A stretch of DNA of 32,000 nt from Candidatus Heimdallarchaeota archaeon (GCA_030149205.1 JASBSB010000008.1:90001-122000), one strand, 5' to 3'; counted from the first letter of the stretch, positions 2,818 through 22,273 are shown. Translations and numbers: made by a program. The notes: generated by a model from the sequence alone, not told the origin.

Positions 2818-3918
2818 ATGAGATATGATATCCTGAAGGGAATTAGGGTGCTAGATCTATCCAGAATATTCACTGGCCCATTTGCAAGTCAGTTGTTGGG
2901 AGACCTAGGTGCAAACATAACAAAGGTAGAACCTCCTTTTGGTGATGATACGAGGTTTTGGGGGCCTCCGTTTATGGACGAAAACCTTTCTGGATATTTT
3001 TATTCATTGAACAGGAATAAATCGGGTATAACCCTTAACCTCAAAGACTCAGGTGATTTAGATAGATTATATGAGCTTGTAAAAAAAGCCGATATTGTAA
3101 TTGAGAACTTTAAGCATGGTGTCCCACAACAACTTAAAATTAGTTATGAAATACTATCAAAGATAAACCCTACATTAATCTATCTATCAATAAATGGCTT
3201 CCACAGTTCTGGAAAATTTAAGGAGAGACCTTCCTATGATATAATTGCCCAGGCTGAGGCAGGTATCATGAGCTTAACTGGGACTGAAACAGGTGAGATC
3301 GTGAAGGTTGGTGTACCTATTGCTGACATTTCAGCAGGAATGTATGGAGTGATTGGAATACTTACTGCTTTACATCATAGGGATATGACCGGAAAGGGAA
3401 CTTATTTAGAAACTGACTTATTTTCGTCTCTCACTTCATGGCTTACTTATCAGGCTGTAAATAACCAACTATTGGAACCCAGACATACATTAATGGGTAC
3501 TAGTCACCCAAATATTGTCCCTTATCGAGCATACAATTGTAAGGATGACAGAAAAATAGTATTAGCCGTAGGGAACGATAAGACTTGGGTCAATTTTCTA
3601 AAGGTGCTAAATAACCCCAAGACTCTTCAAAAATACTCAACAAATGAGTCAAGAGTTCAATTTAGATTGATTGTTGATTCTGAAATTCAGAAAATATTAT
3701 TAACAAATGACTTGGATCATTGGGAGCTTAAATTTACAACAGCTGGAATTCCTTATGGGAAAGTTTCTAATCTCGATGATGTAATGAATCATGAAGATGT
3801 TAAATCCAACAATTTATTAATTGAATTTGAAGATGCTCAAGTTTTTAGAACTCCTATTAATTTTCGTGGGCAGACTCTATTGAGGTCTGAAGAACCCCCT
3901 AAATTTAATGATGGTTAA
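2818..3918 (+). CDS. Class III CoA-transferase (CaiB/BaiF/Frc family)
   Basis: LKGIRVLDLSRIFTGPFASQLLGDLGA, KVEPP.GDDTR, LNRNKSGITLNLK, ADIVIENF, YDIIAQAEAG, and the active-site Asp in VPIADISAG. The C-terminus (..EEPPKFNDG*) is somewhat shorter than usual. Substrate not assignable. Confidence 0.93.
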   Translation: MRYDILKGIRVLDLSRIFTGPFASQLLGDLGANITKVEPPFGDDTRFWGPPFMDENLSGYFYSLNRNKSGITLNLKDSGDLDRLYELVKKADIVIENFKHGVPQQLKISYEILSKINPTLIYLSINGFHSSGKFKERPSYDIIAQAEAGIMSLTGTETGEIVKVGVPIADISAGMYGVIGILTALHHRDMTGKGTYLETDLFSSLTSWLTYQAVNNQLLEPRHTLMGTSHPNIVPYRAYNCKDDRKIVLAVGNDKTWVNFLKVLNNPKTLQKYSTNESRVQFRLIVDSEIQKILLTNDLDHWELKFTTAGIPYGKVSNLDDVMNHEDVKSNNLLIEFEDAQVFRTPINFRGQTLLRSEEPPKFNDG

Positions 3919-3977
3919 TATTTCTTATGTATCTTCAATGAATTAAATTTCCTAAGATTCTTCACAAATTAAATATT

Positions 3978-4976
3978 TTAGACCCTATTTTCAAGGATAA
4001 ATGAGTTTACTGCTACATATATTGATCCAAGATCATTTTTTAATGTCTCCAATGTTTTTTGTGGTTTTAATGTTAGATCTTCTACCAATAAAGCGACAGA
4101 ATTAACCACACTTGGAACTACGATTAGGTTATTTGGTTTGGTCTCTCTATTAGAAGCTGTTTCAATTATTTTTTCAAGCCAAGTCTTAACAAACATGTTC
4201 AAGTCAGGTTTTTCTTCAGGGTTATAATTTAAAACAACTGGCAGAAAATCAATAAATAAGACGTCTTGAAGCTCATCAAACAGAAGCGGTTTTGGGTTCC
4301 TTTGCTTGTACTTCTTCTGCTTAGTCACCCGAAAAGTTCCTCTCGTTAATGATGAAAAGGTTCCCATAAGATTTGTTGCAGAATAATGTCTTGGTGTGAA
4401 AATATGTACCATACGCTCCTCAAACCCATGATTAAATTTTTTAAGGTTAGTAATTGCCCGCTTAAATCTTTCTTGTTCTCCAATCTGTAAAACAATCGAA
4501 GGTGACCAAAGATGCCAGACTTCAATTGGGGGTAAAAAATCGAAATCTTTCACCTTAGTTTCAGGTACACAAATCAAAGGAAGATTAAGATTTGTATCAA
4601 CCACAATGACTTCAGGTCTAAAAGCATTATATTCCATTTGTGAAATCTTGTATATTTTTTGCCAAAACGACTCAATACTTGGGAGTCCCAAAGAAAGTAC
4701 ATTTCTCCACCGATTTAACCAAAAATTTTGATTGATTTGCCAGAACATCTCCCCATCCTTTTCTACCGCTTCTAACCAACCGTTTGATTTACGATTTGAT
4801 ACCTCTGAGCTAGCAATAATTGTAAAAGTATCAGCATTATTAAAATTAAAATCGCAAAGGAGAGTATTTTTACCCGCCTCAGCATAACTAACTGCTACGG
4901 AAATACTCATTGGTGTTTTTCCTCCCCCACCCTTTGAACCAGTGATTATGATAACCTTTGGTTCTGAAACCATCAA
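3978..4976 (-). CDS. ParA/MinD-family (SIMIBI) P-loop ATPase, divergent
   Basis: Deviant Walker A IIITGSKGGGGKT, followed by GKNTLLCDFN and VIVVDT. The remainder is not recognisable. Confidence 0.75.
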   Translation of the reverse strand: MMVSEPKVIIITGSKGGGGKTPMSISVAVSYAEAGKNTLLCDFNFNNADTFTIIASSEVSNRKSNGWLEAVEKDGEMFWQINQNFWLNRWRNVLSLGLPSIESFWQKIYKISQMEYNAFRPEVIVVDTNLNLPLICVPETKVKDFDFLPPIEVWHLWSPSIVLQIGEQERFKRAITNLKKFNHGFEERMVHIFTPRHYSATNLMGTFSSLTRGTFRVTKQKKYKQRNPKPLLFDELQDVLFIDFLPVVLNYNPEEKPDLNMFVKTWLEKIIETASNRETKPNNLIVVPSVVNSVALLVEDLTLKPQKTLETLKNDLGSIYVAVNSFILENRV

Positions 4977-5131
4977 ACAGGTTATAATTCATGAGCTAAT
5001 ATAAGTTTCGTATTTTCATTTTGAATTCATCCAATCTATGGACTTATATTGAGACAGTATTGAAATTATTCCATTTAATATTGAACTTTATAGTCACTAA
5101 ATATCCTTAATTACATAGGAAAGCCATATTG

Positions 5132-6517
5132 TTAGACCTGTATAGGTATGATATGATTTTCAGATCTAAGTATTTGATCTGTTATTTGGAAAGATTCTGA
5201 TAAAAGTCCATCACAGGCAATTGAATTCCAACCTATCCCAGATAAGTAGAGACCAGGATTTTCTTTTTCCATTTTTTCCTTCCATTCTATTATCGATGAA
5301 TGATCCAAGGTAAATTGTGGTATTCCCTGGGGATGTTGTCGGTGAACCTCAACAAATTCTGGACTTCCTTTTGCACCCAATAAACCTGATAATTCTTTTG
5401 TCACCTCTTCGATAAGTATTGAATCATCTAAAGTAGAACGTTCAGGATACCTTGCTCCTCCTACAAAACATCTCAATAGAATTTTATTATCTGGGGCTCT
5501 ATGATTAAACAACTTAGAACTAAATAACACACCCAGTACAAAAGTTTTTTCACCTGATGGAGAGAGAAAGCCATATCCGATTGGAGGATTTTCAAAGGCT
5601 GTAACATCATAACCCAACGAAACTACGGTCACATAAGAAACATTCGGAGGTTTTGGTAGGACTTTACCCATGATTGATATCTTTGTTGCTGCAACAGATC
5701 CTGTGGACACAATTATATTTTCAGAATAATATGTATCACCTGATACAGTTTGAACTTCATATAACTCATCCTTCTTCTCAATCTTTTCAACGGTTGAATC
5801 GTAGCTGACATTTACCTGACGAGCTAAAGATTTGATCAAACCCTCCATACCTGTATCTGAAACATATAAGAAGGGCTTATCTGCTTTTTTATTTGATTCT
5901 ATTTTTCCTTGGGAGGAATTCTTTTTTTTCTTTGCCGAAGACATCATCCCTTTAACAACTGAACCAGATGATGTTTCAGCTGATTTAAGGAAAGGAAAAG
6001 AGTACTTAACACTTGATTTAGTATGATCACCTCCATAAATCCCAGACACAAAAGCATCAACAATGGGAGTCACAGATTTACCAAACCTTCGAGAAATAAA
6101 TTGTTCGACAGTTTCATCATCTGGGTTTGCTTTGACAAAGGGTTCTTTTAACAGTCTCAACTTACCTTTCAGTGAGATTATAGGAGTTGATAATGCAGAG
6201 AATAATCCAGTGGGTAAAGAGACAAGCTTGTGGTTTTTAATCAAATACCTAAGCTTTGCTTCGTTCGATGCAGCAACTGGATCTAAGCCCGCAAGTTCAA
6301 ATATCTTTTTTGTATTTTCGGATTTCCCTCGTAGACCCTCTGGCCCCCATTCAGATATATACCCATTCTTAGATGTGGTATGTATCAATCCTCCAGGCCT
6401 GTTTGCCTTTTCCAAAACCAGCAGTTTATCTTTCTCTATACCTTCATGTTGAAGGGATACCGCCGCACTTAATCCTGAAATCCCCGCCCCAATAATTACC
6501 GTGTGATATACATTCAT
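5132..6517 (-). CDS. hemY: FAD-dependent protoporphyrinogen IX oxidase (HemY/PgoX type)
   Basis: Rossmann motif IIGAGISGLSAA...LEKANRPGG, plus EWGP, FVSGIYGGD, GYGFL, GVLFSSKLF..RAP, LLRCFVGG and GIPQF. SD GGAGG 8 nt before the ATG. Last gene of the hem operon. Confidence 0.93.
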   Translation of the reverse strand: MNVYHTVIIGAGISGLSAAVSLQHEGIEKDKLLVLEKANRPGGLIHTTSKNGYISEWGPEGLRGKSENTKKIFELAGLDPVAASNEAKLRYLIKNHKLVSLPTGLFSALSTPIISLKGKLRLLKEPFVKANPDDETVEQFISRRFGKSVTPIVDAFVSGIYGGDHTKSSVKYSFPFLKSAETSSGSVVKGMMSSAKKKKNSSQGKIESNKKADKPFLYVSDTGMEGLIKSLARQVNVSYDSTVEKIEKKDELYEVQTVSGDTYYSENIIVSTGSVAATKISIMGKVLPKPPNVSYVTVVSLGYDVTAFENPPIGYGFLSPSGEKTFVLGVLFSSKLFNHRAPDNKILLRCFVGGARYPERSTLDDSILIEEVTKELSGLLGAKGSPEFVEVHRQHPQGIPQFTLDHSSIIEWKEKMEKENPGLYLSGIGWNSIACDGLLSESFQITDQILRSENHIIPIQV

Positions 6518-6529
6518 AGTTTGTTCCTC

Positions 6530-7912
6530 CTAAATTGATTGTGAGAAAAGATGTTTCCCTGGGTCATAATACTGGTCAAATACCGATGCTATGATTCTTG
6601 AAAAGATCTTCCCCTTAGATGTTGACTCCCATCCAGCTTCTGTTACTTGTAACAGACCCAAATTTACAAATTCATCAAGTATCTTTACCTTGGAATTAAT
6701 TTCATTGACTGCCTTTAAGCCATACCGTGATTCAACAACTTGGGGATTTATTTCTCCTTGACAGAGAAAATCCATTATTAATTTCTTGTGTAGAATATCA
6801 TCTGAACTCATTGAATGACCTTTTACCGTTGCAGTACCATATTTTTCAATTAGCCGCTCATATTCAGCCATATCCTTTGAATTTTGAGCGTATGCAAGTT
6901 CAAGTTCACTAATTCCAGAATAACCTAATGCAATTAAGTCTGTCCCTGCTTTTGTTGTATACCCCATAAAATTTCTTCTTAAGGTCTTTTTTTCATAACT
7001 TTGCCAAAGTCCATCATGCTTTGTTGAAAAATGATCAAAGCCGATTTGTTCATAATCTTGATTAATAAAAAATTTACGTGCTGAAAGAAATCGATTCAAT
7101 TTTTCTGATCCTTTCGCAATCACATTTAATGGAATAGCTTTATGATGCCGAAATAATGTGGGAAAATGTGCATAGCTGTACAATGCTATTCGATCAGGAT
7201 GAATGGTGTTTACAAGTCGAAGGGTTTTTGCAAAGTTTTCATCTGTCTGGTAGGGTAATCCATAAATTAGATCCATATTTACACTCTCAAATCCCTTTTC
7301 TCTTGAATATTCAATTAATGAGTTAGTCTCTTCGAAGGTTTGGAATCGGTTAAGTTTTTCTTGAACCTCAGGGTCAAAATCTTGAACTCCCACAGATATA
7401 CGGTTAAAGTTAAATTCTGACAACACATCGATATGCTCATCTGATGTGACTGATGGATGTATCTCAATAGATAGTTCTGCGTCCTTGAGGACTTTGAAAT
7501 TTGTCCAGATTGTTGTAAATAAGTCTTTGAGTTGATCAGGTGTTAGATGGGTTGGGGTTCCTCCACCTAGGTGTAGCTGTATGACCTCGTTTCTTGGCAA
7601 ATACAGCTCAGAGGTTTTACGAATCTCTTCTTTTAGAACTGATAAATACCTTTCAACTCTATCCTCTCTATGTGTTACAAGTACGTTACATGCACAGAAT
7701 AAACATCTTCTAATGCAAAACGGGATGTGTAAATAGAGGCTTAATGATTCTTCCTTGTGCTTGCTCTTTTCAATATCATCGAGATAGTTTTGCACGTTGT
7801 AATTCGATTTCCAATTAGGCACCGTCGGATAACTGGTATATCTCGGAACACGTAAGTCAAACTTCTCAATTTCTCCGACTTTTATATCTTCAATAGATTC
7901 TTGTTCAATCAT
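6530..7912 (-). CDS. hemN: Oxygen-independent coproporphyrinogen III oxidase/dehydrogenase (radical SAM, HemN/CgdH)
   Basis: PRYTSYPT, LYLHIPFCxxxCxxC (CIRRCLFC), HLGGGTPT, NRISVGVQDFD, DLIYGLPYQT and RNFMGYT. The PRYTSYP and RNFxGY motifs separate true HemN from HemW-like proteins. Confidence 0.95.
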   Translation of the reverse strand: MIEQESIEDIKVGEIEKFDLRVPRYTSYPTVPNWKSNYNVQNYLDDIEKSKHKEESLSLYLHIPFCIRRCLFCACNVLVTHREDRVERYLSVLKEEIRKTSELYLPRNEVIQLHLGGGTPTHLTPDQLKDLFTTIWTNFKVLKDAELSIEIHPSVTSDEHIDVLSEFNFNRISVGVQDFDPEVQEKLNRFQTFEETNSLIEYSREKGFESVNMDLIYGLPYQTDENFAKTLRLVNTIHPDRIALYSYAHFPTLFRHHKAIPLNVIAKGSEKLNRFLSARKFFINQDYEQIGFDHFSTKHDGLWQSYEKKTLRRNFMGYTTKAGTDLIALGYSGISELELAYAQNSKDMAEYERLIEKYGTATVKGHSMSSDDILHKKLIMDFLCQGEINPQVVESRYGLKAVNEINSKVKILDEFVNLGLLQVTEAGWESTSKGKIFSRIIASVFDQYYDPGKHLFSQSI

Positions 7913-8936
7913 AATTTTTCCACCTTTTTACTATCTCCACCATCTCACCCACGAGATTAACATCAGAATCTTTATGGATTCCTTGAGCTAAATTAAAAAT
8001 ATATTTGTTCCCAAACTTTGTCCCTTCCTCTAGAACATGTTGAGTCTCCTTCCTTACTGTATCCAGATTTGTTTGTAGAACACTTGGATCTAGATTCCCT
8101 TGTAGTATAACATCTTGTGAATAGTTTTTACGAACATTTGATAGTGAGAGAGTTGAATCTATACTGATGACATCAAATGAAAGCTTAACAAGTTCTGGAA
8201 GCAAATGCGAACTCCCTCTTGCATAGATTGAGTTTGGAACACCATTCAGACTTTGGATGATCTTCTTCAAGTGGGGAGAAACCCATTGCTGAAATTGCCA
8301 GGGAGATAAATAAAGTGCCCAAGATTCAAAAATTTGAACCATATCAACACCAGCAGACATTTGAGAATTTAGCTGAGATATGATTATATCACTTAATTTA
8401 TCTAAGAGATTGTCAAATGCATCTGGATAAAGGTATGCAAATTTTTTTGTTTTCAATGCGTCACGGGTAGATTTACCCTCAATTAAGTAACTTGCAAGGG
8501 TGAATGGCCCTCCTGCAAAACCTATCAACCATTTATCACTAATTTCTTCTCTAACTAGCTTCAAAGACTCTACAACGTAGGGGAAATCTTCATCAGGTTG
8601 CGGGATAAGTATGTCCGAAATCTCTATTGGATTTGTTAATGGTTTCTGCAGTTTAGGACCTTGGTTTGGAACAATCTTTAACCCCCTCTGCATGTAGTAA
8701 AGTGGTATTAAAATATCAGAGAAAATAATTGCTGCATCGAGGTTAAATCTTTGAATTGGTTGCAGAGTTATTTCTTTTGCAATATTTGCATTCATCACCA
8801 TATCCTCAAAGGATTTGCCTTCACGAAGTTTTCGATACTCAGGGAGGTAACGACCGGCTTGTCGCATAAACCAGATAGGAGGTCTTTCTGGGGTGATTCC
8901 TTTAAATAACGATGAAAAAAGTTCTCTCGAGGTCAT
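7905..8936 (-). CDS. hemE: Uroporphyrinogen III decarboxylase
   Basis: PIWFMRQAGRYLPEYR, DAAIIFSDIL, LIGFAGGPFTLASY, LQGNLDP. Confidence 0.97.
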   Translation of the reverse strand: MTSRELFSSLFKGITPERPPIWFMRQAGRYLPEYRKLREGKSFEDMVMNANIAKEITLQPIQRFNLDAAIIFSDILIPLYYMQRGLKIVPNQGPKLQKPLTNPIEISDILIPQPDEDFPYVVESLKLVREEISDKWLIGFAGGPFTLASYLIEGKSTRDALKTKKFAYLYPDAFDNLLDKLSDIIISQLNSQMSAGVDMVQIFESWALYLSPWQFQQWVSPHLKKIIQSLNGVPNSIYARGSSHLLPELVKLSFDVISIDSTLSLSNVRKNYSQDVILQGNLDPSVLQTNLDTVRKETQHVLEEGTKFGNKYIFNLAQGIHKDSDVNLVGEMVEIVKRWKNYD

Positions 8937-10222
8937 AAGTTTGTCACCACCTCAGAAATTTTATCAAGAGTCCAATTAAGAATTTTAGAACTATGAGCTG
9001 TAGACAGAAATGATACCTCGAATGGACTCGGTGGCAAATAAACTCCTTGTTTCAACAACTTTTTGTGAAAGACTTTATATTTGTCTTGTGCGTCGATTCC
9101 AAGCTGCTCTGGCTTAAAAATTGTCCTATTTTCTTGAAATACAATCCAAAGAATGCTTGCAAGAGATACAACACCAGCTTGAATCGAATTATCCGCAAAA
9201 ATTGAATCTAATGCCTTTGCGTAATCTTCAGATTTTTTATCTAACTCTCTGTAAACATTTCCATTTTGATCTGACAAAATTTCTAGCGTGGTTAATCCAG
9301 CACTCATCGCCACCGGATTACCACTCAATGTACCTGCTTGATACACTGGACCAAGCGGAGCAATGTAACTCATTAAGTCAGCTCTTCCTCCGTAGGCACC
9401 TACAGGAAATCCTCCACCTATAATCTTTCCAAAGGTAACAATATCTGGATATAGGTTGTAATATCCTGTAGCTCCAGCCAGTCCAATCCTAAATCCAGTA
9501 ATGACCTCATCAAGAATAAACATAGATCCATATTCTTTACAATGAGATTGAATTTCATGCATAAATGTACTAGATTGAACTAACAATCCGTTATTTGCTG
9601 GAACGCCTTCAATAATCACTGCTGCTATATCTTCCCCGAACTTTTCAAAGAGAGCTTTCAACTTGTCTGAATCACCTAATGGTAGAACAAGAGTTTCAGA
9701 AGAGACTGAGGAAGGAACTCCTGCACTTGAACTCAATCCAATTGTAGCCAAACCGCTTCCGGCTTTTACAAGCATAGAATCTGCGTGCCCATGGTAAGTT
9801 CCCTCAAATTTTACAATGTATCGTCTATTTGTGTACCCCCTTGCCAATCTGATGGCAGACATGACAGCCTCTGTTCCACTATTCACAAAACGGATCCAAT
9901 CGGTAGAAGGATGAAGCTCAATAATTTTCTCTGCGAGTTCGACTTCAATACGAGAAGAGGTACCATAGGTTAACCCATTTTTAATCTGCTTCTCCACTGC
10001 CTTAATTACTCGCTGATCTGAATGACCCAAAATTAGAGGACCGAAACTCATGCAATAATCAATGTATTGCTGACCTTCCACATCTACTAAAGTTGTTTCA
10101 TAACTCTTTTCTATAAACAAAGGATCACCATCTACAGAGTTTAAAGCTCTCACAGGTGAAGATACACCTCCAGGCATTACTTTGCGAGCCCGTTGTTTAA
10201 TGTCATTTAATCTTTCAACCAT
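8933..10222 (-). CDS. hemL: Glutamate-1-semialdehyde 2,1-aminomutase
   Basis: MPGGVSSPVRA, RFVNSGTEA, KFEGTYHGH, ILDEVITGFR, the PLP lysine in TFGKIIGGG, and YQAGTLSGNP. Confidence 0.97.
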   Translation of the reverse strand: MVERLNDIKQRARKVMPGGVSSPVRALNSVDGDPLFIEKSYETTLVDVEGQQYIDYCMSFGPLILGHSDQRVIKAVEKQIKNGLTYGTSSRIEVELAEKIIELHPSTDWIRFVNSGTEAVMSAIRLARGYTNRRYIVKFEGTYHGHADSMLVKAGSGLATIGLSSSAGVPSSVSSETLVLPLGDSDKLKALFEKFGEDIAAVIIEGVPANNGLLVQSSTFMHEIQSHCKEYGSMFILDEVITGFRIGLAGATGYYNLYPDIVTFGKIIGGGFPVGAYGGRADLMSYIAPLGPVYQAGTLSGNPVAMSAGLTTLEILSDQNGNVYRELDKKSEDYAKALDSIFADNSIQAGVVSLASILWIVFQENRTIFKPEQLGIDAQDKYKVFHKKLLKQGVYLPPSPFEVSFLSTAHSSKILNWTLDKISEVVTNL

Positions 10223-11184
10223 TGATTTTTCACCAGATCCTCTGCATGATATGTAATAATCATATCTGCACCCGCCCTCCTCATAGCCGTTAAATTTTCA
10301 AGAACTATTGATTTTTCCTCAAATAGCCCTGCTTTTACTGCCACTTTGACCATAGAATATTCTCCACTGACATTATAGGTATAAAGCGGTAAGTTTGTCA
10401 TTTGACGGGCTTGTTGGATAATGTCAAGGAAAGCAAGGGCAGGTTTGACCATCACCGCGTCTGCTCCTTGCTCTCCATCAGCTAAGACCTCAGAAAGTGC
10501 TAACCTCCTGTTACGAATATCAATTTGATAACTTTTTCTGTCTCCAAAACTTGGTGAACTTTCAGCTGCATCTCGAAAAGGTCCATAATATGAGCTAGAA
10601 TATTTGGCAGAATAACTCAAGATTGAGCGGTCAGTATAACCATTTTCATCAAGAGCTTGACGAAGAGAGCGAACTCTAAGATCCAGCATGTTACTAGGTG
10701 CCAACCAATCTGCTCCGGCTTGAGCATAAACTAGACCAGCTTTTGCATACAAATCAAGAGATTTATCATTGTTTACTGAGCTATCCGAATCAAGGATACC
10801 ACAGTGACCATGTGATGTGTATTCACAGAGGCAAACATCAGCATATAACTCAATGGAGCGACCGTAAGCCTCCTTTAGTAATCTTAGAGCAGAAGGGACC
10901 GGTCCTTTTTCATCGTAGGCTGATGAACCAACCTCATCTTTATTTTTGGGAATTCCAAATAAAATATAATGTCTTAATCCATCATTTTGAAGTTTATCAA
11001 TATATTCAGATGCAAGTTCTGGACTCATTTTGTATATTCCGGGCATAGATTGGATTTCTTTTTTTACACCTTTACCTTCAGTTATGAAAAGCGGATAAAC
11101 AAGGTGCTTATAACTTAAATCGGTTTCTGCTAATGACTCTCTGAGAGTTTGGCTTCTCTTATATCTTCTAAATCTGTAATTCAT
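10207..11184 (-). CDS. hemB: Porphobilinogen synthase (Zn-dependent ALA dehydratase)
   Basis: Zn-binding DVCLCEYTSHGHCG, SYSAKYSSSYYGPFRDAA, MVKPAL, YNVSGEY. Confidence 0.97.
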   Translation of the reverse strand: MNYRFRRYKRSQTLRESLAETDLSYKHLVYPLFITEGKGVKKEIQSMPGIYKMSPELASEYIDKLQNDGLRHYILFGIPKNKDEVGSSAYDEKGPVPSALRLLKEAYGRSIELYADVCLCEYTSHGHCGILDSDSSVNNDKSLDLYAKAGLVYAQAGADWLAPSNMLDLRVRSLRQALDENGYTDRSILSYSAKYSSSYYGPFRDAAESSPSFGDRKSYQIDIRNRRLALSEVLADGEQGADAVMVKPALAFLDIIQQARQMTNLPLYTYNVSGEYSMVKVAVKAGLFEEKSIVLENLTAMRRAGADMIITYHAEDLVKNQWLKD

Positions 11185-12787
11185 AAGTTTCTAACTCCTT
11201 TTTTAATGTGTTAACTATACCTTCCACAGTTGGAGACTCTGCCATTTTTGATTTGATTCCAAGTTCATCCAGTTGACTTTGAACTGATTTCCCAATTACA
11301 ATCCAATTGAACTTAGAAGATTTTTCCAGGGAATTAATTACATGTAAGACCCCTTTAGTTGAAAATCCAACAATATAATCTGGTTCAAATGGTAATTCAA
11401 CACTCAGATATTTAGTTGAATAGACTTTAAAATGATCAACGTACTCAAAGGGTGATACAGTGTAAGACTCACCTGAAAAATATACCACTTTATCTTTAGT
11501 GCTTAACACTTCCTTCAAATGAAGTTGTAATTCACTCATCCCATTTAAGGAAACAATATTGACAGGAAATCCATTTTTTCTTAAAATTTCACTTGTCCTA
11601 TAACCAACAGCAGCTACTTTGAATTTAGACTTTGGAAACTGTTGTTGTAGTTTATTCAAAAATGGAATTGCATGCTTACTGGATATAATTACCCAGTTTG
11701 CGGATTTCCAAGATTGAATCACATTTGAATTATTGAGTAACGAATAATTAGTTTCATACTCAATGATTTTTAAATTTGAAGCCATGTAACCTAAATTTAC
11801 GGCTTCAGAAATGTATGGAGCAGCTGTTTCATCGTCAGTCAAGAATAAAATTGAATTTCCATTATTTTTAGAATCTGATGTTCTTGAATCCATGTTTTCA
11901 CTGGCTATGAATTTTAAGAAGCGGTTTTTTAGAGCATTAATTGTATTATCTTGAAGTAAAATTCTATTGAAATTAGAAGTACCAATAGATTCAAGGTAAT
12001 AGGTGGATGAGAGTTGAATTTCACTGTCCCCAACATTTGTTATCGATATCCCAACTCCACTATCACATCCACCAAGAAACTGTCCTAACAATTCCCTCTC
12101 AACCTTAGTTATGAGAAAGCTATCTTCATCACCGATCTCTCTCAATTCAGAATACTCACCTTTTCTTACTTGAACCGCAATAGCAGATTGTCCAGGAGAT
12201 GTTGGGAATCTGTCAAGGGGGAGAATTATCATCTGAATGTTCTTAGCAATTTTTAGAACTATTCTGTCAAAAACAGCTGCAGACATAACTAATCCATCGA
12301 TATATTCTGTTTCAAGTTGTTTCACTCTTGTATGAACATTTCCTCTAATATCAAGTGGGATAATCGTTGGATCTAGAGCTTTTAGTTGGCTTCTTCTACG
12401 AATTGAACCTGTGGCTATTCTTGAAAATTTTCTTATTTTTAAAGGTGATGTTGATAATAAGTTATCAGATTTAATCAACAGAACATCATTTGGAGTGTCA
12501 CGCTTTAGAACAGTAACTATTTCTAACTCATCTGGTTGTTCTAAGGGTAAATCTTTCAAACTATGAACTGCTATGTCAATCTTACCTTCCAGTAATTCTT
12601 GCTCCAATCTGCTTGTAAATACACCCTGTCCTCGGAAGCTTGAGATGGGGGAAACCAAATCAATATCACCCTTACTTGAGATTCCTTTAATCGTAACTTC
12701 TTGGTTGAGCTTATTGATAATGGCATCTTTAACCATTTTAGCCTGAATTAAGGCTAATTCGCTCTTTCTGGTTCCTATACTGATCAA
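11168..12787 (-). CDS. hemC: Fused hydroxymethylbilane synthase (HemC) + uroporphyrinogen III synthase (HemD-like C-terminal domain)
   Basis: N-terminal ~290 aa: GTRKSELALIQA, DIAVHSLKDLP, GSIRRRSQL, RGNVHTR, PGQSAIAV and the cofactor Cys in GGCD. C-terminal ~230 aa: WVIISSKHAI, VAAVGYRTSEIL, VYFSGE, WIVIGKSV and AESPTVEGIV, all HemD-like. TTG start overlaps the hemA stop (TTGA), with SD GAGGAGG upstream. Confidence 0.9.
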   Translation of the reverse strand: MISIGTRKSELALIQAKMVKDAIINKLNQEVTIKGISSKGDIDLVSPISSFRGQGVFTSRLEQELLEGKIDIAVHSLKDLPLEQPDELEIVTVLKRDTPNDVLLIKSDNLLSTSPLKIRKFSRIATGSIRRRSQLKALDPTIIPLDIRGNVHTRVKQLETEYIDGLVMSAAVFDRIVLKIAKNIQMIILPLDRFPTSPGQSAIAVQVRKGEYSELREIGDEDSFLITKVERELLGQFLGGCDSGVGISITNVGDSEIQLSSTYYLESIGTSNFNRILLQDNTINALKNRFLKFIASENMDSRTSDSKNNGNSILFLTDDETAAPYISEAVNLGYMASNLKIIEYETNYSLLNNSNVIQSWKSANWVIISSKHAIPFLNKLQQQFPKSKFKVAAVGYRTSEILRKNGFPVNIVSLNGMSELQLHLKEVLSTKDKVVYFSGESYTVSPFEYVDHFKVYSTKYLSVELPFEPDYIVGFSTKGVLHVINSLEKSSKFNWIVIGKSVQSQLDELGIKSKMAESPTVEGIVNTLKKELETYELQI

Positions 12788-13917
12788 TTAGAATAGACCT
12801 CCTCATCAAGCACATCTTCAAACCTTTTTTGTGAGATGTACATTATCTCGTTAACAAATTTCTCAAAGTTCCGTTTTGCCTTCTTATCTTCTTTTAAAAA
12901 TAAACCCATTCTTTGTTCGGCAACAACTTTTACATCTGACCTAAAACTTTTCCAAAATTCAGATTTTGAGAGTCTTTGATACTCTTTCAGAATTTTCAAA
13001 AGCTCATCATCCAACATTTCCCTAATTCCACGGAACTCACCATCATCATCAAAGTTTCTAGAAAGAGAAAGCAAGGATTCCATTGAAAAGACATTAATAT
13101 TCTCCAGATCCTTAATTTCTGGATGACAGTTTCTAGGGAGACCAAAATCAAATATTAGTTTCTCAGAGTTTAAAGGAAAGTCAGAAGAATAAACAAATGG
13201 TGTCTCTGCACGTGTGGTATAGAAAAGAACTGGATGATTAGGGACAGAATTATAAGATTCAGCCCGGTAACCCTCCAATTCAAGACCCAATCTATTTTCT
13301 GTTCTTGTATAAACTGTAATGTTATCATTCAATTCTTTAAGATGGTGAACAATTATCTCAGCCATCTTTCCCGTTCCCACAACACCTAGAGAAGAAGCTT
13401 GTTTAATTTGCTGTTCAAAATTTGATGCAACAAAATAAATTGTAGATTTTTTTGCATAAGATAAAATTGTGGAAGACCTTAGACGCTTTCCCGTACGAAT
13501 TACCATTTGCATTAAGCGCTTCAAGTCACCACTCATGTAAGGCTCTGATTCAGTATACGCTGTTTTGAATTGATGTTGAATCTGGTCTTCCCCAATAACC
13601 AATGAATCAAGTGAAGAGATAACCTCAAGTAAGTGCTCTAATCCCTGTTTTCCTTGTAATTGTTCACAGCTTTGCAAATCTTTCCAATGGTTAAATTTAC
13701 GGAGCCTTTCAAGATATTGTTCTGATTGTTCTTTATCTGAATTTAACGTTACAAGTAAAACCCTTTGACAAGTGTTCAGGTAAAAAAAATTTCCGAATAC
13801 CTTGTGAATCTCCTTCAAATATTGAGCTCTGTTCTCAGATGGTAGAATCACTTTTTCAACATCCTCAATGCTACATCTCCCCAGCCTCCACGACAGAACC
13901 AAAAGAGGAAAATCCAT
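12784..13917 (-). CDS. hemA: Glutamyl-tRNA reductase (divergent, 377 aa)
   Basis: LNTCQRV (catalytic Cys), LDSLVIGEDQI, NADPH-binding GVVGTGKMA, FDFGLPRN. Start moved from the ORF-track 14058 to ATG 13917 (MDFPLLVLSW), which lies 1 nt after the hemH stop with SD GGAGG. The longer start would overlap hemH by 140 bp. Confidence 0.88.
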   Translation of the reverse strand: MDFPLLVLSWRLGRCSIEDVEKVILPSENRAQYLKEIHKVFGNFFYLNTCQRVLLVTLNSDKEQSEQYLERLRKFNHWKDLQSCEQLQGKQGLEHLLEVISSLDSLVIGEDQIQHQFKTAYTESEPYMSGDLKRLMQMVIRTGKRLRSSTILSYAKKSTIYFVASNFEQQIKQASSLGVVGTGKMAEIIVHHLKELNDNITVYTRTENRLGLELEGYRAESYNSVPNHPVLFYTTRAETPFVYSSDFPLNSEKLIFDFGLPRNCHPEIKDLENINVFSMESLLSLSRNFDDDGEFRGIREMLDDELLKILKEYQRLSKSEFWKSFRSDVKVVAEQRMGLFLKEDKKAKRNFEKFVNEIMYISQKRFEDVLDEEVYSN

Positions 13918-13918
13918 C

Positions 13919-14941
13919 TCAATTTTCCTCCAAGTAACCTTGCAAAAATTGGGCAACTTTGTTTGCGTAATCATCATCATCATTTGGAACTGAGACTCGA
14001 ACATAGTTCCGAACACCATATTTCTTGGCCAAGTCACCATATAAGATATCAATCTCATACAAGGTTTCTACATGGTCTGAAACGAATCCTAGGGGAACCA
14101 TAATGATTGTAGAAGGAGATGTTTTCGAAATTTCCTCTACGGTTTTATCTGTGTAAGGTCTTAACCAAGGAAGAGGTCCAACCTTACTTTGGTAAGAAAG
14201 ATGAAAGCTAATCTGATTTTTGTATTCTCCTAATCCATCGATTATAAGTTGTTTAGCCTCTTCTATCCTTCTGGGATATTGTTCACCACGATCTACATAT
14301 TTTTGTGGTAACCCATGAGCAGAAAATACCACGTGAACATTTTTATCCATCACCATCCCATCTTTCTGGAATTGTGTAAGTTTATTCTTAATCTCATCAC
14401 TCCACCAGTCGATGTAAAAACCCTGTGTTGTCCAATCATCAATTTCTGTTATTGTCAAATGTGAAGTATTTTCTTGTGTTTCTAGAAACCTATAAAAATC
14501 ATTGAAACTAGAACCTGTAGTTGCAGAAGCATAGTGTGGGTATTGAGAAAATAACAAGATGTGGTCATACCCATTTGTAATTTGTGATTTTAACTCCTCA
14601 ACTCTCGGATAAGTATATCTCATAACAACTTGAGTATCCACATCTAATCCAGATTCAACTAAGTTTGATTTAACTTTATTCGCCAATGATTCAGTGATAA
14701 GAAGAATAGGACTTCCATTCCCAATTTGACCGTACATATGACGTGTTCCCTTTGATCTGAATATTGAAACCATTTTTCCAAACTGTTTTTGAAAGAGGTT
14801 CATAGGAAAAGGGAGTTGGATCATGTCCTTATCTTCAAAAATATTTTGAAGGAATTTAGGGATATCTTCAAGTGTCTCAGGTCCACCCATATTTAGAAAT
14901 AAAATTAAAGTCTTCTTTTTACTAGATCCTAGACCACTCAT
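13919..14941 (-). CDS. hemH: Ferrochelatase (protoporphyrin ferrochelatase-type), first gene of hem operon
   Basis: LNMGGPETLEDI, GSPI, MRYTYP, QYPHYASATTGSS, FSAHGLP, YQSKVGPLPWLRPYT, VPLGFVSDHVETLYEID. Confidence 0.96.
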   Translation of the reverse strand: MSGLGSSKKKTLILFLNMGGPETLEDIPKFLQNIFEDKDMIQLPFPMNLFQKQFGKMVSIFRSKGTRHMYGQIGNGSPILLITESLANKVKSNLVESGLDVDTQVVMRYTYPRVEELKSQITNGYDHILLFSQYPHYASATTGSSFNDFYRFLETQENTSHLTITEIDDWTTQGFYIDWWSDEIKNKLTQFQKDGMVMDKNVHVVFSAHGLPQKYVDRGEQYPRRIEEAKQLIIDGLGEYKNQISFHLSYQSKVGPLPWLRPYTDKTVEEISKTSPSTIIMVPLGFVSDHVETLYEIDILYGDLAKKYGVRNYVRVSVPNDDDDYANKVAQFLQGYLEEN

Positions 14942-14970
14942 AAAGCTCTAGACTTTATACCACATTTAAC

Positions 14971-14977
14971 TTTAAAA
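14971..14977 (-). promoter_or_regulatory. Putative TATA box of hem operon
   Basis: Minus-strand TTTTAAA ending 29 nt before the hemH ATG, which fits archaeal spacing for a leaderless or short-leader mRNA. AT-rich context, so only moderately specific. Confidence 0.45.
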
Positions 14978-14990
14978 GGAATAGTTTCTT

Positions 14991-15004
14991 TGATTCCGGA
15001 ATCA
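14991..15004. promoter_or_regulatory. Perfect 14-bp palindrome TGATTCCGGAATCA, candidate transcription-factor site
   Basis: Exact self-reverse-complement with a GC-rich core in an AT-rich intergenic region, 13 nt upstream of the putative TATA box. Confidence 0.5.
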
Positions 15005-15196
15005 CCTGAACCTTTGTGGTTACGAAAAAATAAAGAGATTTTCATCTTTAATATTGAAAACATAAAGTAATTGTCTGTGGAATTAATATTCATTAAACTA
15101 AACATTTAACATTATAGTTTGGTTATCTTAAAGAAAAGATCAAAATAAATAGTCACTTATTTATTTTATCGCTCAGCGTCAGTCAAATCACAGGGT

Positions 15197-15487
15197 GTGG
15201 TCACAGTTTTAGGTGAACAGAGAAATATAAATACAGAGAATAAAAAATTGAATGAAGTAGAAGCAGAACAGGGAGAAAAAGAACAGATTATACCTCTCCA
15301 GCAACTAAAAGATCGAGACCTTTCCATAATTAAATTTAAGCAGTATCAACCAAATAATTTGCATCAATTCCAAAACACACCAGATCAGAAGAAATTTTCA
15401 AACAAGAGAAAAAATATTGCTAACCTAAGCAGACCTGTGTCATTGAAGTCAGTGATATTTAAGCTCGTGAGTGAGGTGAATATTTGA
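15197..15487 (+). CDS. Possible small hypothetical protein
   Basis: 96-aa purine-rich ORF with GTG start whose stop overlaps the next TTG start (TTGA). No recognisable motif, so it may be spurious. Confidence 0.3.
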   Translation: MVTVLGEQRNINTENKKLNEVEAEQGEKEQIIPLQQLKDRDLSIIKFKQYQPNNLHQFQNTPDQKKFSNKRKNIANLSRPVSLKSVIFKLVSEVNI

Positions 15488-16638
15488 AATTATCAGAGAA
15501 AAATAAACTGTTATTAGTCTCGATACTAGTAATTTCCCTTACCACAGGCTCTATTGGATCATTTCCGGGGATAATTTATTTTTATGGACATCTCGGTCCC
15601 GTCATCTTCGCTGTATGGAGCCCAGATGGGTCAACGATAGTCTCCGGGGGTGCGGATACAAATATAATCATTTGGGACGTTAAAAACTCTTCATCAAGCA
15701 CTGGCCTCTATAAATCACCATTTATGGATGATTTTAGAGGGGACCCAATTTCAGGGTTAGCTTGGTCACCAAATGGGACTTATCTCGCGGGTATGAGCTG
15801 GAAAGATGGATTACATATCTGGAATGAAAGCTACCACAAAAAGACCACTTTTCATCCTGCTGGTTACTCCTTTAGTGCTATGTCGTGGTTTGAAGGTGGC
15901 TTTCTGCTTGGGTTACTGGTGGGCGAGAATCGAGTTAACCCATATTTATCACTGAACGCAATCCTTGCAAGACCTAACTTGATAAATGGGAGTATATCTC
16001 CAATCCTGAAAACAAATGCCACAATCTTAGACATCAAGGTGAACAGAAACAATCAGGTGGCACTGCTCTTGAAAAACAGCACGGTTGTCACCATAATTGG
16101 CACCCAGCAACAATCCTATGTGTTCCAGCACATGCCGAAGGCAATCGAATGGGACAATCAAACCTTGGTAGTTAGTGTTCGCAACGAGATACGGTTTTTT
16201 GATGGCAAAAACACGGTGTTGAAGAACTCAAAAGATGTGACCGCTTTCGCCTTTAATTCCAACCACTCTGAGCTGATTCTTGGAGATGACAGAGGAGTGG
16301 TAAGTGTCTGGAACAAAACAGACCTCACGAAGAAACTAGAATTTAAGACACCATCTTATAGAATTCACAACTTTGATTGGAGAGGTTCCTCAGTGTTGAT
16401 CACAAGCAGTAATTCAAGTTTTTTCCTGTATTCGACCAGCAATGGGACACTGTTGGATTCTTATGGAGGTGTTCTGAGTTCCATTCCTGGTTCCCATTAC
16501 CCTGTGGGACAATATCTTGATTACCCCTTTGTCTCAATTCTATTAATTTTTGTTCTTATCATTCCAATTATGAAACGAAGAAAACTTTTGCATACAATCA
16601 ATCGAAGGTCTTACAAAAATATCTCTGAACTAAATTAA
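15484..16638 (+). CDS. Membrane-anchored/secreted WD40 beta-propeller protein
   Basis: N-terminal hydrophobic segment (LLLVSILVISL). WD40 motifs GHLGPVIFAVWSPDGSTIVSGGADTNIIIWD, ISGLAWSPNGTYLA...LHIWN and LILGDDRGVVSVWN. C-terminal TM helix + KRRK. SD GAGGTGA before the TTG. Confidence 0.85.
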   Translation: MKLSEKNKLLLVSILVISLTTGSIGSFPGIIYFYGHLGPVIFAVWSPDGSTIVSGGADTNIIIWDVKNSSSSTGLYKSPFMDDFRGDPISGLAWSPNGTYLAGMSWKDGLHIWNESYHKKTTFHPAGYSFSAMSWFEGGFLLGLLVGENRVNPYLSLNAILARPNLINGSISPILKTNATILDIKVNRNNQVALLLKNSTVVTIIGTQQQSYVFQHMPKAIEWDNQTLVVSVRNEIRFFDGKNTVLKNSKDVTAFAFNSNHSELILGDDRGVVSVWNKTDLTKKLEFKTPSYRIHNFDWRGSSVLITSSNSSFFLYSTSNGTLLDSYGGVLSSIPGSHYPVGQYLDYPFVSILLIFVLIIPIMKRRKLLHTINRRSYKNISELN

Positions 16639-17985: not shown

Positions 17986-19236
17986 ATGCTTATAAACAAG
18001 TTGGACAAATACTCTATGATGAAGAGGGTTTCAACAATTCTAATTTTGGTTATCTTATTCCAATTTGGAATAAACCTAGGGGTGAGTTCAATGGGATATC
18101 ATCCAATATCAGAGGTAATTCAACCACAAATCACCAATGCAACATATGTTTCTGTTAAACTTGGTGGGATCTCAACATCAGTAAATGATGGGGTAACGTT
18201 AAATATCACTGTTAAATTTCAGACGGATGATGTTAACAAAACTTTGGTGGATTTATCACTGTCAACAACTGAGGGTCATTTTGCAAACAACTTAACAGAC
18301 ACATCTGTCCAGTTCAAAGCTGCGAATGTAACTTTATGGTTTCTTTGGACTGCCCCTGTAATTTATCAGAAACAGTCACTTAATGCAAATATCTCAACTA
18401 CTGCCACAATGGACACATTAACTGCTTCCGATTACAATATAGTGAAAGTTAACCCGGTTTTTTATGATTTTTCTGTAACTTGGATTCAGCCTACACAGAT
18501 ATTTCAAGATCAAACAGCTGCCCCTATTGAAATACAAGTGAAAAACAAGGTAAATTCTTCTCTTGTCTATAATGCAACAGTCTCTCTTAATTTAGAAATA
18601 GGAGTATTTACTGGGACAAACAGAAGTGATATTGTGGTTTTCACCAATCAATCTGGTGTGGCTAAGGCATACATGAACTTCAAACCAGTATCATTTATCT
18701 ATGATAAAAACACAGTCTCGGTCTCTGCAATAATTACAAAACCTAAGTACAATGACCTTACGTCTAACACCACCCTCACTGTCATCAAAGGAGCAAATAA
18801 ACCATCGGCATCAGTGAAATTTAGTACACATACGGATGGGGGAATATCAATTGTTGAAATCTTAATTTCTGCAAAACTCAATGGTAATCCCTGGTGGAAT
18901 GCCACCTTCAAGGTTATTGCCAATGCAGGACAGTTTGAGAACGGACAACAGACGATATCTGTGAAGACAAATTCATCTGGTTTAATATTAACTACTTGGA
19001 ACTCTTCAAAGATTCCGAAGCATGTTGACGATTTATCGGTATTTTTTGTTGTGAAACTTCAATCACTGGATTATGGAAACTTTTTCAAAGATCAAAACTA
19101 CACCTTATCACTTAAAGGAACACCAACAACAATCTCAATACCATCCTCTAAGAACCCTTCACCGCTGAACATTAGCTCAATCATTATTTCTTTTATAATT
19201 ACAGTTATCATTTTTAGGAGGAAAATATTCAAATGA
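17986..19236 (+). CDS. Secreted, C-terminally anchored Ig-like (Big_1/invasin-like) surface glycoprotein
   Basis: Signal peptide (start may be ATG 18016/18019, MKRVSTILILVILF). T/S/N/V-rich beta sequence with repeated TNxSG..W motifs and many NxS/T sequons. C-terminal PSPLN + hydrophobic helix + RRK. Confidence 0.75.
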   Translation: MLINKLDKYSMMKRVSTILILVILFQFGINLGVSSMGYHPISEVIQPQITNATYVSVKLGGISTSVNDGVTLNITVKFQTDDVNKTLVDLSLSTTEGHFANNLTDTSVQFKAANVTLWFLWTAPVIYQKQSLNANISTTATMDTLTASDYNIVKVNPVFYDFSVTWIQPTQIFQDQTAAPIEIQVKNKVNSSLVYNATVSLNLEIGVFTGTNRSDIVVFTNQSGVAKAYMNFKPVSFIYDKNTVSVSAIITKPKYNDLTSNTTLTVIKGANKPSASVKFSTHTDGGISIVEILISAKLNGNPWWNATFKVIANAGQFENGQQTISVKTNSSGLILTTWNSSKIPKHVDDLSVFFVVKLQSLDYGNFFKDQNYTLSLKGTPTTISIPSSKNPSPLNISSIIISFIITVIIFRRKIFK

Positions 19237-22200: not shown

Positions 22201-22268
22201 TAACCTCTGTAAGCTACCCAAGTCATATTGACAAGAAAATGGGGATAAGATATCCCCTAATCAGGTGA
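19233..22268 (+). CDS. Giant archaeal type IV pilin-like protein with ~10 tandem beta-sandwich repeats
   Basis: Class III signal peptide MRGKQRS|VSPVVAMVLIIALAV (archaeal pilin consensus R-[GAS]|VSPV), a pilin-like domain to ~aa 150, then repeats. No C-terminal TM anchor. SD AGGAGG; ATGA overlap with the upstream gene. Confidence 0.85.
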   Translation: MRGKQRSVSPVVAMVLIIALAVASAATVYIVVVNFMNQTNYNIAPVSSVLAYDYNNDTKIDVLKVKLENVGSSSLEISYIAIQDANSPKQWFKDPNSPSKLDAKSSLDFTFFTNSSSSQLSSGQDVIMFIGKSVNDFATIKLSIPTQINLGTPVTVTVLSAGSPVVGSIISFTQASGLPASVPPQSTDGKGQVKVYLLPNYYYATTSNGVKSKVFFSLDEPSITINGTAQKISVKVVDSKNQPLSGISVYAADKNQNDIGKSTITNSSGLADMVLAEGSFLLRASYLSQNYWSSQINVPSSTKLVTIKITSGTLNGSIYFGKVQVKQRLYVRLYTSSNATMNQGQWTNSSGYFSFTNGVVSGLYRLRLQYSGRYFWSGILSTSTPDLQANFGGGIISINITAGNYSLRRGVLTRLFTDTNTYTSRYSWTNTTGGVNYGAYPGGNYKVRIDWLRKYTFSKVFENTGTALHLDFAGGKLIVQVRLNDTTIRGGVLTRLFLPDNNYTYLYGWTNSSGFVNYGVVLAGNYKLRVDWLRKYVYTSEFYHDGLGTKFVDVNGFKLSVKVNLDGQSIRSGVLTRLFLGSSTTYTYLYAYVNSTGYANYGGILSGIYRLRIDWLRQYVYSSDFVHNTTGPKTVNLAGGRLLIQVKLDNSPIRSGVLTRLFLNGSNTYTYLYAYTNGTGWVDYGGVLQGNYKLRIDWMRQYQFSSGFFHNSSAPKSINMQGGRLVIHLTSGNQNLRSGILTRLFLNGSNTYTYLYAYTNASSYVDFGGILPGVYQLRIDWLRMYTFTVGFDHQNSTAKSVNVQGGTLSTQVKIGGTPVQSGVLVRLFTNSFSYTYLYAYTNSSGYANFGNVIGGNFSMRVDWQRQYTYSGFLIHNDSTPLSFSLDGTGKLLIRVRDNANSPLAGSQLIRLFLTPGNSYTYIYRYTNGTGYVQFNTILANTYQLRWDNQNPDWYSNVFTVNNTASATVDITVTPTATAQNVSNPLNPVRVTSVSYPSHIDKKMGIRYPLIR
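19686..22150 (+). repeat. Intragenic tandem repeat, ~82-83 aa (~249 bp) x ~10
   Basis: Unit consensus GG(K/R)LxxxVxxxxxxIRSGVLTRLFxxxNxYTYLYxYTNxSGxVxYGxxxxGxYxLRxDWxRxYxFSxxFxH. The 7 copies from ~20406 are well conserved and the first 3 are divergent. DNA copies gactaggttattcct at 21206 and 21455 are 249 bp apart and differ mostly at synonymous sites. The fold type (CarboxypepD_reg/transthyretin-like sandwich) is inferred. Confidence 0.9.
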
Positions 22269-22273
22269 ATATC

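Follow-up and report, generated by a model that had tools for sequence, protein, structure and literature searches.

A 32,000-nucleotide stretch of the genome of a Candidatus Heimdallarchaeota archaeon (GCA_030149205.1, JASBSB010000008.1:90001-122000; hereafter the window) was found to carry an operon for haem biosynthesis. Eight intact open reading frames (ORFs) lie on the minus strand between window positions 5132 and 14941 and were identified with Pfam and NCBIfam models as hemH-hemA-hemC/D(fused)-hemB-hemL-hemE-hemN-hemY. With hemA read from the ATG at 13917, the junctions between consecutive genes measured +1, -4, -17, -16, -4, -8, and +12 nt. The gene order, strand, coordinates, and seven junction lengths given in a preliminary description of this DNA were all reproduced exactly by recomputation. 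The ORF list also holds a longer hemA, which begins at 14058 and overlaps with hemH; it was set aside in favor of ATG 13917, the coupled start.

Each of genes two to eight carries a Shine-Dalgarno (SD) motif (GGAGG, AGGAG, or GGTG(A)) 6-12 nt 5′ of its start; the hemA start, 1 nt past the hemH stop, is preceded by GGAGG. The SD motifs claimed for the operon were thus recovered for genes two to eight but not for hemH, the first gene, which has none. A/T-rich, TATA-like boxes were present 12-36 nt upstream of hemH. The A/T-rich segment 14942..15000 (minus strand) is a putative operon promoter region; counted from the hemH ATG, its sequence reads TTTTAAAG at -36..-29 and TATAAAG at -18..-12. These boxes would suit an archaeal promoter whose leader is very short, and we infer a promoter role for the segment. 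A sigma-70 promoter scan was without enrichment (32 found vs. 37 expected), as was a terminator scan. The eight genes would be read as a single transcript from the archaeal-type promoter upstream of hemH. Genes two to eight, each of which has an SD and a start that overlaps or adjoins the preceding stop, would be translationally coupled.

A 10-bp hairpin at window positions 13904-13931 (minus strand) pairs the hemA SD (GGAGGAAAAU) with hemA codons 2-4 (-15.4 kcal/mol, z -2.46), and its loop holds the stop of hemH together with the start of hemA. Such a structure would tie hemA translation to ribosomes completing hemH. The hairpin was unconserved across ten related junctions and was regarded as incidental.

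The first gene, hemH (13919..14941; 340 aa), matched the ferrochelatase models PF00762 (296 bits) and TIGR00109 (280 bits vs. a cut-off of 124.6). It scored 194 bits against human FECH and 156 bits against the yeast enzyme, both protoporphyrin-type ferrochelatases (PpfC), and at most 92 bits against coproporphyrin ferrochelatases (CpfC). The alignment with human ferrochelatase runs end to end, with identity at the positions of human M76, H263, H341, and E343, which we take to be the catalytic residues. HemH contains no Cys and, in contrast to the animal enzyme, ends before the C-terminal [2Fe-2S] extension. It is classed, from these matches, as a protoporphyrin-type ferrochelatase.

The following gene, hemA (12784..13917; 377 aa), probably encodes a divergent glutamyl-tRNA reductase with GlutR_N (86 bits, cut-off 27) and Shikimate_DH (43.5 bits) domains, a catalytic-type Cys in LNTCQRV, and the NADPH motif GTGKMA. 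The fused hemC/D gene (11168..12787; 539 aa) joins a hydroxymethylbilane synthase (PF01379 194 bits, residues 2-211; TIGR00212 206 vs. 164) to a uroporphyrinogen-III synthase (PF02602 49.6 vs. 27.5, residues 354-525). Its sole Cys, Cys241 in GGCDSGVG, occupies the dipyrromethane attachment position. A zinc-type porphobilinogen synthase (ALAD) is encoded by hemB (10207..11184; PF00490 433 bits; NF006762 419 vs. 297), with the Cys-rich metal motif DVCLCEYTSHGHCG.

Glutamate-1-semialdehyde 2,1-aminomutase is encoded by hemL (8933..10222), which scored 549.5 vs. 398 with NF000818 and 526.8 vs. 527.3 with TIGR00713 and has its pyridoxal-phosphate lysine, K266, in TFGKIIGGG. The uroporphyrinogen decarboxylase gene hemE (7905..8936) matched PF01208 (353 bits) and TIGR01464 (357.5 vs. 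302.95), bears the MRQAGRYLPEYR motif, and matched UROD entries in the PDB at 185-220 bits. The radical S-adenosylmethionine (SAM) gene hemN (6530..7912) encodes an oxygen-independent coproporphyrinogen III dehydrogenase (CgdH; TIGR00538 449.9 vs. 324.95) with an N-terminal PRYTSYPT, a CxxxCxxC motif plus fourth Cys (HIPFCIRRCLFCAC), and GGGTP; it failed the models of HemW (131 vs. a cut-off of 205) and HemZ (142 vs. 321). The last gene, hemY (5132..6517), encodes a flavin adenine dinucleotide (FAD)-dependent, oxygen-dependent, putative protoporphyrinogen oxidase of the HemY family (PgoX by context), with the FAD motif GAGISG (TIGR00562 253 vs. 97.85; PF01593 123 bits).

The enzymes of competing routes were searched for in the window's own genome, which is 93.5% complete. 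There were no matches to ChdC/HemQ (PF06778), HemF, AhbA/B (PF17805), SUMT (TIGR01469), or CobN/Mg-chelatase large subunit, and the best score for AhbD (TIGR04545) was 74.6 against a cut-off of 500. The statement that no cysG, ahb, or chdC gene occurs in the window therefore holds and extends to the whole genome, where the proposed search for Ahb genes, ChdC, and HemF returned neither AhbA/B, AhbD, ChdC, nor HemF. The genome has one ferrochelatase and one ALAD, both of them the operon copies. In the absence of ChdC, HemF, AhbA/B, AhbD, SUMT, and Mg/Co-chelatase, the operon is read as the genome's only tetrapyrrole pathway. With its true HemN (TIGR00538) and protoporphyrin-type HemH, it very probably encodes the protoporphyrin-dependent (PPD) route to haem b, with haem as the sole product, in agreement with the bacterial/eukaryote-style route that had been proposed.

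In this pathway, HemA and HemL would form the C5 route to 5-aminolevulinate, which zinc-type HemB would convert to porphobilinogen, and the fused HemC/D would yield uroporphyrinogen III. HemE would then form coproporphyrinogen III, radical-SAM HemN would form protoporphyrinogen IX without oxygen, flavoenzyme HemY would oxidize protoporphyrinogen IX with oxygen, and HemH would insert iron to give haem b. Candidate haem users in the genome comprised three COX1 (haem-copper oxidase) matches, a CtaB gene adjoining one COX1, and a short CtaA. By way of CtaB and CtaA, haem from the operon would reach the three haem-copper oxidases, and b-type cytochromes would receive it too.

Three observations weigh against the PPD reading. 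HemA scored 137.6 with TIGR01035, under the cut-off of 209.55, and its dimerization domain was undetected. The exclusions rest on a metagenome-assembled genome (MAG) that is 93.5% complete, although operon-bearing relatives are likewise without ChdC and AhbA/B. Finally, the best solved relative of HemY, by 6 bits, was B. subtilis HemY (152, vs. 146 for M. xanthus PPO and 140 for tobacco PPO), which is titled protoporphyrinogen oxidase in the PDB and which we take to be the coproporphyrinogen-oxidizing CgoX of the coproporphyrin-dependent (CPD) route.

The last observation would fit a CPD variant of the pathway, in which HemY is CgoX, HemH chelates coproporphyrin, and an oxygen-independent coproheme decarboxylase, the HemN-like radical SAM protein, replaces ChdC. 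Radical SAM enzymes such as AhbD are able to decarboxylate coproheme, and among the bacterial proteins closest to HemY, some have the UniRef label 'coproporphyrinogen III oxidase'. This variant was nevertheless judged quite improbable, as HemN lies well over its equivalog cut-off (450 vs. 325) with the PRYTSYPT, CxxxCxxC, and GGGTP motifs of true CgdH, the HemH scores against human and yeast PpfC are double those against any CpfC, and ChdC is absent from both the genome and its operon-bearing relatives. Moreover, the HemY-bearing bacterial cluster that adjoins the archaeal clade in the HemY tree, with weak support (24), carries HemF. By its sequence scores, HemY may act on either substrate; its context (hemN in the same operon, no ChdC, HemF in the adjacent bacterial cluster) favors protoporphyrinogen.

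A further possibility is that the pathway chiefly supplies protoporphyrin for (bacterio)chlorophyll-like pigments, as was proposed for deep-sea Heimdallarchaeia in a study that placed HemA, HemL, HemB, HemC, HemE, HemN, HemG, and HemH in a 'porphyrin and bacteriochlorophyll' scheme (PMC11193907). Here, the first gene of the operon is a ferrochelatase, the genome has haem-copper oxidases, CtaB, and CtaA, and it lacks a CobN/Mg-chelatase large subunit, which makes a pigment function very hard to credit.

The PPD operon was placed in an archaeal host by several lines of evidence. The archaeal model won the clan competition for the genome's small-subunit (SSU) rRNA. The contig bearing the window (C9; 123 kb) also encodes an archaeal leucyl-tRNA synthetase (LeuRS; 929 bits with leuS_arch, 150 with its bacterial counterpart) and an aspartyl-tRNA synthetase of archaeal type (AspRS; 424 bits), 20-30 kb away from the operon. 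In an independent Logan assembly of the probable source run, one 52.5-kb contig of uniform depth (73.6) covered window positions 3000-15639 with zero differences and, by offsets, extended back to ~C9:53,129, taking in the LeuRS and AspRS genes. The tetranucleotide correlation of the operon with the rest of the genome was 0.974, equal to the mean of random 9.8-kb chunks. Near-identical DNA was present at low depth in two further studies, one of a hydrothermal vent and one of sediment; the sequencing runs listed with this DNA included no RNA run, and the contigs used were DNA only. Among named sequences, those nearest to HemH, HemY, and HemC/D came from Heimdallarchaeota archaeon LC_2/LC_3 and Candidatus Kariarchaeaceae archaeon. 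By these markers, the host is an Asgard archaeon, as the preliminary description had supposed, and belongs to the Heimdallarchaeia (Kariarchaeaceae-like), and the check for chimerism through markers, depth, and tetranucleotides identified the contig as archaeal and not chimeric.

The enzyme types of the operon are typical of bacteria and eukaryotes, and hemE, hemN, hemY, and hemH are missing from most archaea (PMC3004389), as would be expected if bacterial DNA had reached an archaeal MAG through mis-binning or chimeric assembly, or if the transfer were very recent. That explanation has next to no probability given a tetranucleotide profile indistinguishable from that of the genome, the uniform-depth 52.5-kb contig joining the operon by offsets to archaeal LeuRS and AspRS, and the occurrence of the operon on contigs as long as 736 kb across >13 assemblies of related archaea. 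In addition, the best sampled bacterial identity was ~42% for HemN and 28-37% for HemH and HemY.

The distribution of the pathway was surveyed in 83 species genomes of the class and in 400 genomes of the phylum, 317 of them in other Asgard families. Within the class, full-strength ferrochelatase occurred only in the window's family (f1; relatives labelled Kariarchaeaceae), a sister family of the same order (f4; 3/3), and one f6 genome. Across the phylum, 13 of 400 genomes had a ferrochelatase, all within f1, f4, and f6, and 0 of 317 in the other families. When window proteins were mapped onto fetched loci of ferrochelatase-bearing relatives, every mapped contig kept the hemH-A-C/D-B-L-E-N-Y order as far as the contig reached, in seven f1 and three f4 genomes. 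All eight genes were recovered in G044, G045, G046, G042, and G035, and two to seven genes, up to the contig end, in G036, G043, G038, G033, and G034. The f6 genome contained just a HemH fragment and ALAD at matching spacing. The same operon was found in LC_3 (GCA_001940645.1, MDVS01000010.1) and on a 194-kb Atlantic contig. The operon proteins of these relatives were 25-64% identical to those of the window, and such low identity even inside a GTDB genus indicates that the operon is old.

Among the 83 class genomes, ALAD was found almost only in operon-bearing genomes, as the operon copy, and AhbA/B was absent save on one contig. Within the class, therefore, the operon appears to be the whole tetrapyrrole pathway. 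Since class families without the operon have no ALAD, we infer that tetrapyrrole capacity was gained or lost as one block, with the distribution of ALAD and AhbA/B as the best support. ChdC (PF06778) gave a single match in these genomes, on the foreign-looking contig G041:C40.

Two genomes held hem genes of other types. The f1 genome G041 (63% complete) contained only foreign-type HemH fragments, one adjoining ChdC. At G041:C40:7373-8729, ChdC lies beside a ferrochelatase fragment of non-operon type, and at G041:C442:8-1670, hemH is directly beside a hemB, with best HemH matches that are eukaryote-like or bacterial (~35%). Both are probably contaminant contigs. The only f5 genome with AhbA/B-like genes carries them at G059:C30:3-2111 (61.7 and 50.9 bits), beside ALAD on a short contig; this could be a lone sirohaem-route cluster or a contaminant.

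The f5 family (G047-G068; 4-5.9 Mb) was examined for haem use. A strong haem-copper oxidase subunit I (~450 bits) was present in 11 of its 22 genomes. In these 11, ferrochelatase, ChdC, and ALAD were not found, and AhbA/B was found in one only. An oxidase without the terminal-route markers that were searched for suggests haem auxotrophy or scavenging, and with it dependence on partners.

Phylogenies of the operon enzymes consistently grouped the archaeal copies. The careful HemH tree gave the Asgard clade support of 99-100 and united it with a second archaeal group (98-100/85-87), outside which a bacterial hemE-N-H-Y-ccsA cluster branched next. The second archaeal group, sister to the Asgard HemH clade, is one whose two contigs (from GCA_044345325.1 and JGI 3300045763) carry the identical eight-gene operon. 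The joint archaeal clade had support of 100 in both the HemY and the HemN trees. In a concatenated tree of all eight proteins (3130 columns), the archaeal and Asgard clades were each supported at 100/100, and the Asgard copies formed two subclades, mostly along family lines. The HemC/D fusion was retained in all archaeal copies.

One contig of the second lineage, L120 (19.5 kb, 68.5% GC), also carries PAN, FtsZ, DUF2240, and TrmB genes. The nearest atlas clusters of its FtsZ and PAN were euryarchaeal, and its PAN was 58-65% identical to all Asgard families alike across the 400 sampled genomes. With moderate confidence, the L120 group is taken to be a second archaeal lineage, probably non-Asgard. 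A haloarchaeal identity for L120 was rejected, as its proteins are not acidic (pI 5-6). A gyrase gene on the other second-lineage contig was rejected as a non-Asgard marker, as about half of Asgard genomes have GyrB. The DNA gyrase B C-terminal domain was seen in 203 of the 400 Asgard genomes, in nearly all Heimdallarchaeia families except f7. A conserved upstream TrmB regulator was also considered, from LC_3 and both second-lineage contigs, and was dropped: the TrmB proteins were mutually unmatched, and none lies beside the window operon.

Bacterial relatives were sought by word- and pattern-seeded searches only, and bacterial sampling in the trees was sparse and hit-driven. When each species was represented by one genome in a pattern-seeded scan, bacterial HemN reached at most 42% identity, in Acidobacteriota, Myxococcota, Planctomycetota, and Burkholderiales. 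In the word-seeded searches beyond the Asgard set, HemH was nearest to arthropod mitochondrial enzymes (38-39%) and to those of Acidobacteria and Desulfuromonadales (36-37%), HemY to FCB-group bacteria (31-36%), and the HemC domain to FCB-group bacteria (40-44%). Within the reach of these searches, no close bacterial donor was found in the sampled data.

The whole pathway, trunk genes included, may have come into archaea, or spread among them, as a single unit, with mostly vertical inheritance since then in three Heimdallarchaeia families. Acquisition as a unit, put forward in the preliminary description, fits the distribution (ALAD nearly confined to the operon in 83 genomes, ferrochelatase to three families in 400). 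On the other side of the balance, acquisition as a unit was judged from that distribution and from trees in which bacterial sampling was limited and guided by search hits. Flanking genes gave no common neighbors between the window and its relatives, except a ParA-like match of 49 aa that is positioned differently. Lastly, the f1 genome G043 (G043:C421, locus L037) carries an operon of the sister-family/LC_3 type (100/99), with HemA 25% and HemC/D 31% identical to those of the window. Inheritance has therefore not been purely vertical, and the G043 operon has either been transferred between members of the class or lies on a contig that was mis-binned.

Alternatively, the operon could have been built inside archaea by the addition of bacterial late genes (hemE, hemN, hemY, and hemH) to an archaeal trunk (hemA, hemL, hemB, hemC, and hemD), rather than acquired whole. 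HemA and HemC/D are the most divergent products of the operon, and its hemH-first order is unlike that of the bacterial E-N-H-Y clusters seen. Trunk genes are present in most tetrapyrrole-making archaea and are often clustered (PMC3004389). Against such assembly, the class families without the operon have neither ALAD nor AhbA/B, leaving no resident trunk visible, and the closest non-archaeal matches of the HemC domain are in the FCB group, the same as for HemY. Stepwise construction was considered unlikely, if still the most credible of the alternatives weighed here, and entry or spread as one unit remains the preferred account.

The relationship of the archaeal HemH to the eukaryotic enzyme was also considered. 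Arthropod FECH had 38-39% identity to the window HemH, as opposed to ~25% to an alphaproteobacterial HemH. Archaeal HemH and the arthropod mitochondrial enzymes formed one subfamily, split at 100/100 from five added bacterial enzymes (alpha-, beta-, and gammaproteobacterial, myxobacterial, and Sericytochromatia), and an archaea-plus-eukaryote HemH clade was not rejected by the approximately unbiased (AU) test (p = 0.38). These results would be compatible with an old archaeal hem clade whose ferrochelatase shares a specific ancestor with the eukaryotic mitochondrial ferrochelatase, in which case at least the final eukaryotic haem step would come from the Asgard host and not from the alphaproteobacterial endosymbiont. 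Such an ancestry was thought improbable. The eukaryotes adjoin a group from a bacterial-looking contig (89/84), the backbone of the HemH tree is poorly supported, and there were no eukaryotes among the top 120 HemY relatives. Furthermore, eukaryotes use HemF rather than HemN.

Further genes were noted on the plus strand of the window. Two WD40 beta-propeller proteins, identified by domain matches, are encoded at 1927-2781, ~2.4 kb past the hemY end of the operon, and at 15484-16638, ~0.5 kb past the hemH end; flanks bearing WD40 genes were not common to related genomes. Two overlapping large ORFs at 19233-24154 (1011 and 629 aa) matched Ig-like and CarboxypepD_reg domains, and the 1011-aa ORF had a weak N-terminal match to archaeal type IV pilin (23 bits, just under the cut-off). 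Both are probably surface proteins. Profile matches at 24321-25558 identified an AhpC/TSA peroxiredoxin (117 bits) and a VIT1-family iron transporter (158 bits). The end of the former overlaps the start of the latter by 1 nt, ~9 kb from the haem operon, and they look like an oxidative-stress and iron-handling pair.

Overall, the operon points to the haem source of oxygen-respiring Heimdall-group archaea as a classical route that most archaea lack, one step of which, HemY, itself requires oxygen. It would be conserved as a unit among archaea, its fixed gene order and its HemC/D fusion being common to a second archaeal lineage. As distribution-based readings, this conserved unit, its block-wise gain or loss, and the suggested auxotrophy of f5 would bear on aerobic metabolism and syntrophy around eukaryogenesis.

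Parts of this picture have been reported. In a survey of 59 archaeal genomes, the late hem genes were missing except for hemE and hemH in Thermoplasmatales (Storbeck et al., 2010; PMC3004389). PPD haem synthesis has since been described in Ca. Heimdallarchaeota as well as certain unclassified Euryarchaeota, with horizontal gene transfer proposed (PMC11459464, 2024), and Heimdallarchaeia MAGs have been listed with HemA, HemL, HemB, HemC, HemE, HemN, HemG, and HemH (PMC11193907). Haem biosynthesis was treated in general terms by Appler et al. (bioRxiv 10.1101/2024.07.04.601786), with these genes unnamed in the main text. Some of the unclassified Euryarchaeota may be mislabelled Heimdallarchaeia: the genome with contig G046:C12 (locus L038; proteins P0011 and P0249), which GTDB assigns to the window's genus, bears the NCBI label 'Methanobacteriota/Euryarchaeota archaeon'. 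The operon architecture, the HemC/D fusion, the restriction to three families, and the phylogeny were nowhere found described in the literature, nor was any literature found that pairs Heimdallarchaeota with protoporphyrinogen oxidase. The earlier caution that the route might already be known was well placed, since PMC11459464 reports it and the LC_3 operon has been public since 2017. What is new here is the operon architecture, ancestry, and distribution; the route itself is known in the group.

Compared with known systems, the window operon resembles the classical PPD pathway of Gram-negatives and eukaryotes in having the same enzyme family at each step, intact diagnostic motifs, and no ChdC. 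It differs in its archaeal host, in the gathering of eight genes into one operon with hemC and hemD fused, in the pairing of anaerobic HemN with aerobic HemY in the absence of HemF, and in its short, divergent HemA. With the archaeal Ahb pathway it shares the product, haem b, and a trunk common up to uroporphyrinogen III, whereas SUMT, AhbA/B, and AhbD are missing from the window's genome. The bacterial hemE-hemN-hemH-hemY clusters (Acidobacteriota/Thermoanaerobaculia) and an FCB whole-pathway cluster contain the same late enzymes, HemN plus HemY, and some have the entire pathway at a single locus, like the window. These clusters differ in gene order, in their separate hemC and hemD, and in a divergently transcribed trunk; they fall outside the archaeal clade, and the E-N-H-Y clusters have HemH and HemY 28-31% and HemN ~40% identical to those of the window.

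The Leptospira hem cluster presumably also has a fused hemC/D and the order hemA-hemC/D-hemB-hemL-...-hemE-hemN-hemY, whereas the archaeal operon is led by hemH and has no two-component genes; no Leptospira sequence was among the named nearest homologues. Among the archaea, LC_2 provided named HemH and HemC/D matches with 37-49% identity to the window. The LC_3 operon has the identical eight-gene order and HemC/D fusion and belongs to the same concatenated-tree clade as the window, but its proteins are 27-54% identical to those of the window, it falls in the second subclade with the sister family, and it has a divergent TrmB gene upstream where the window has none.

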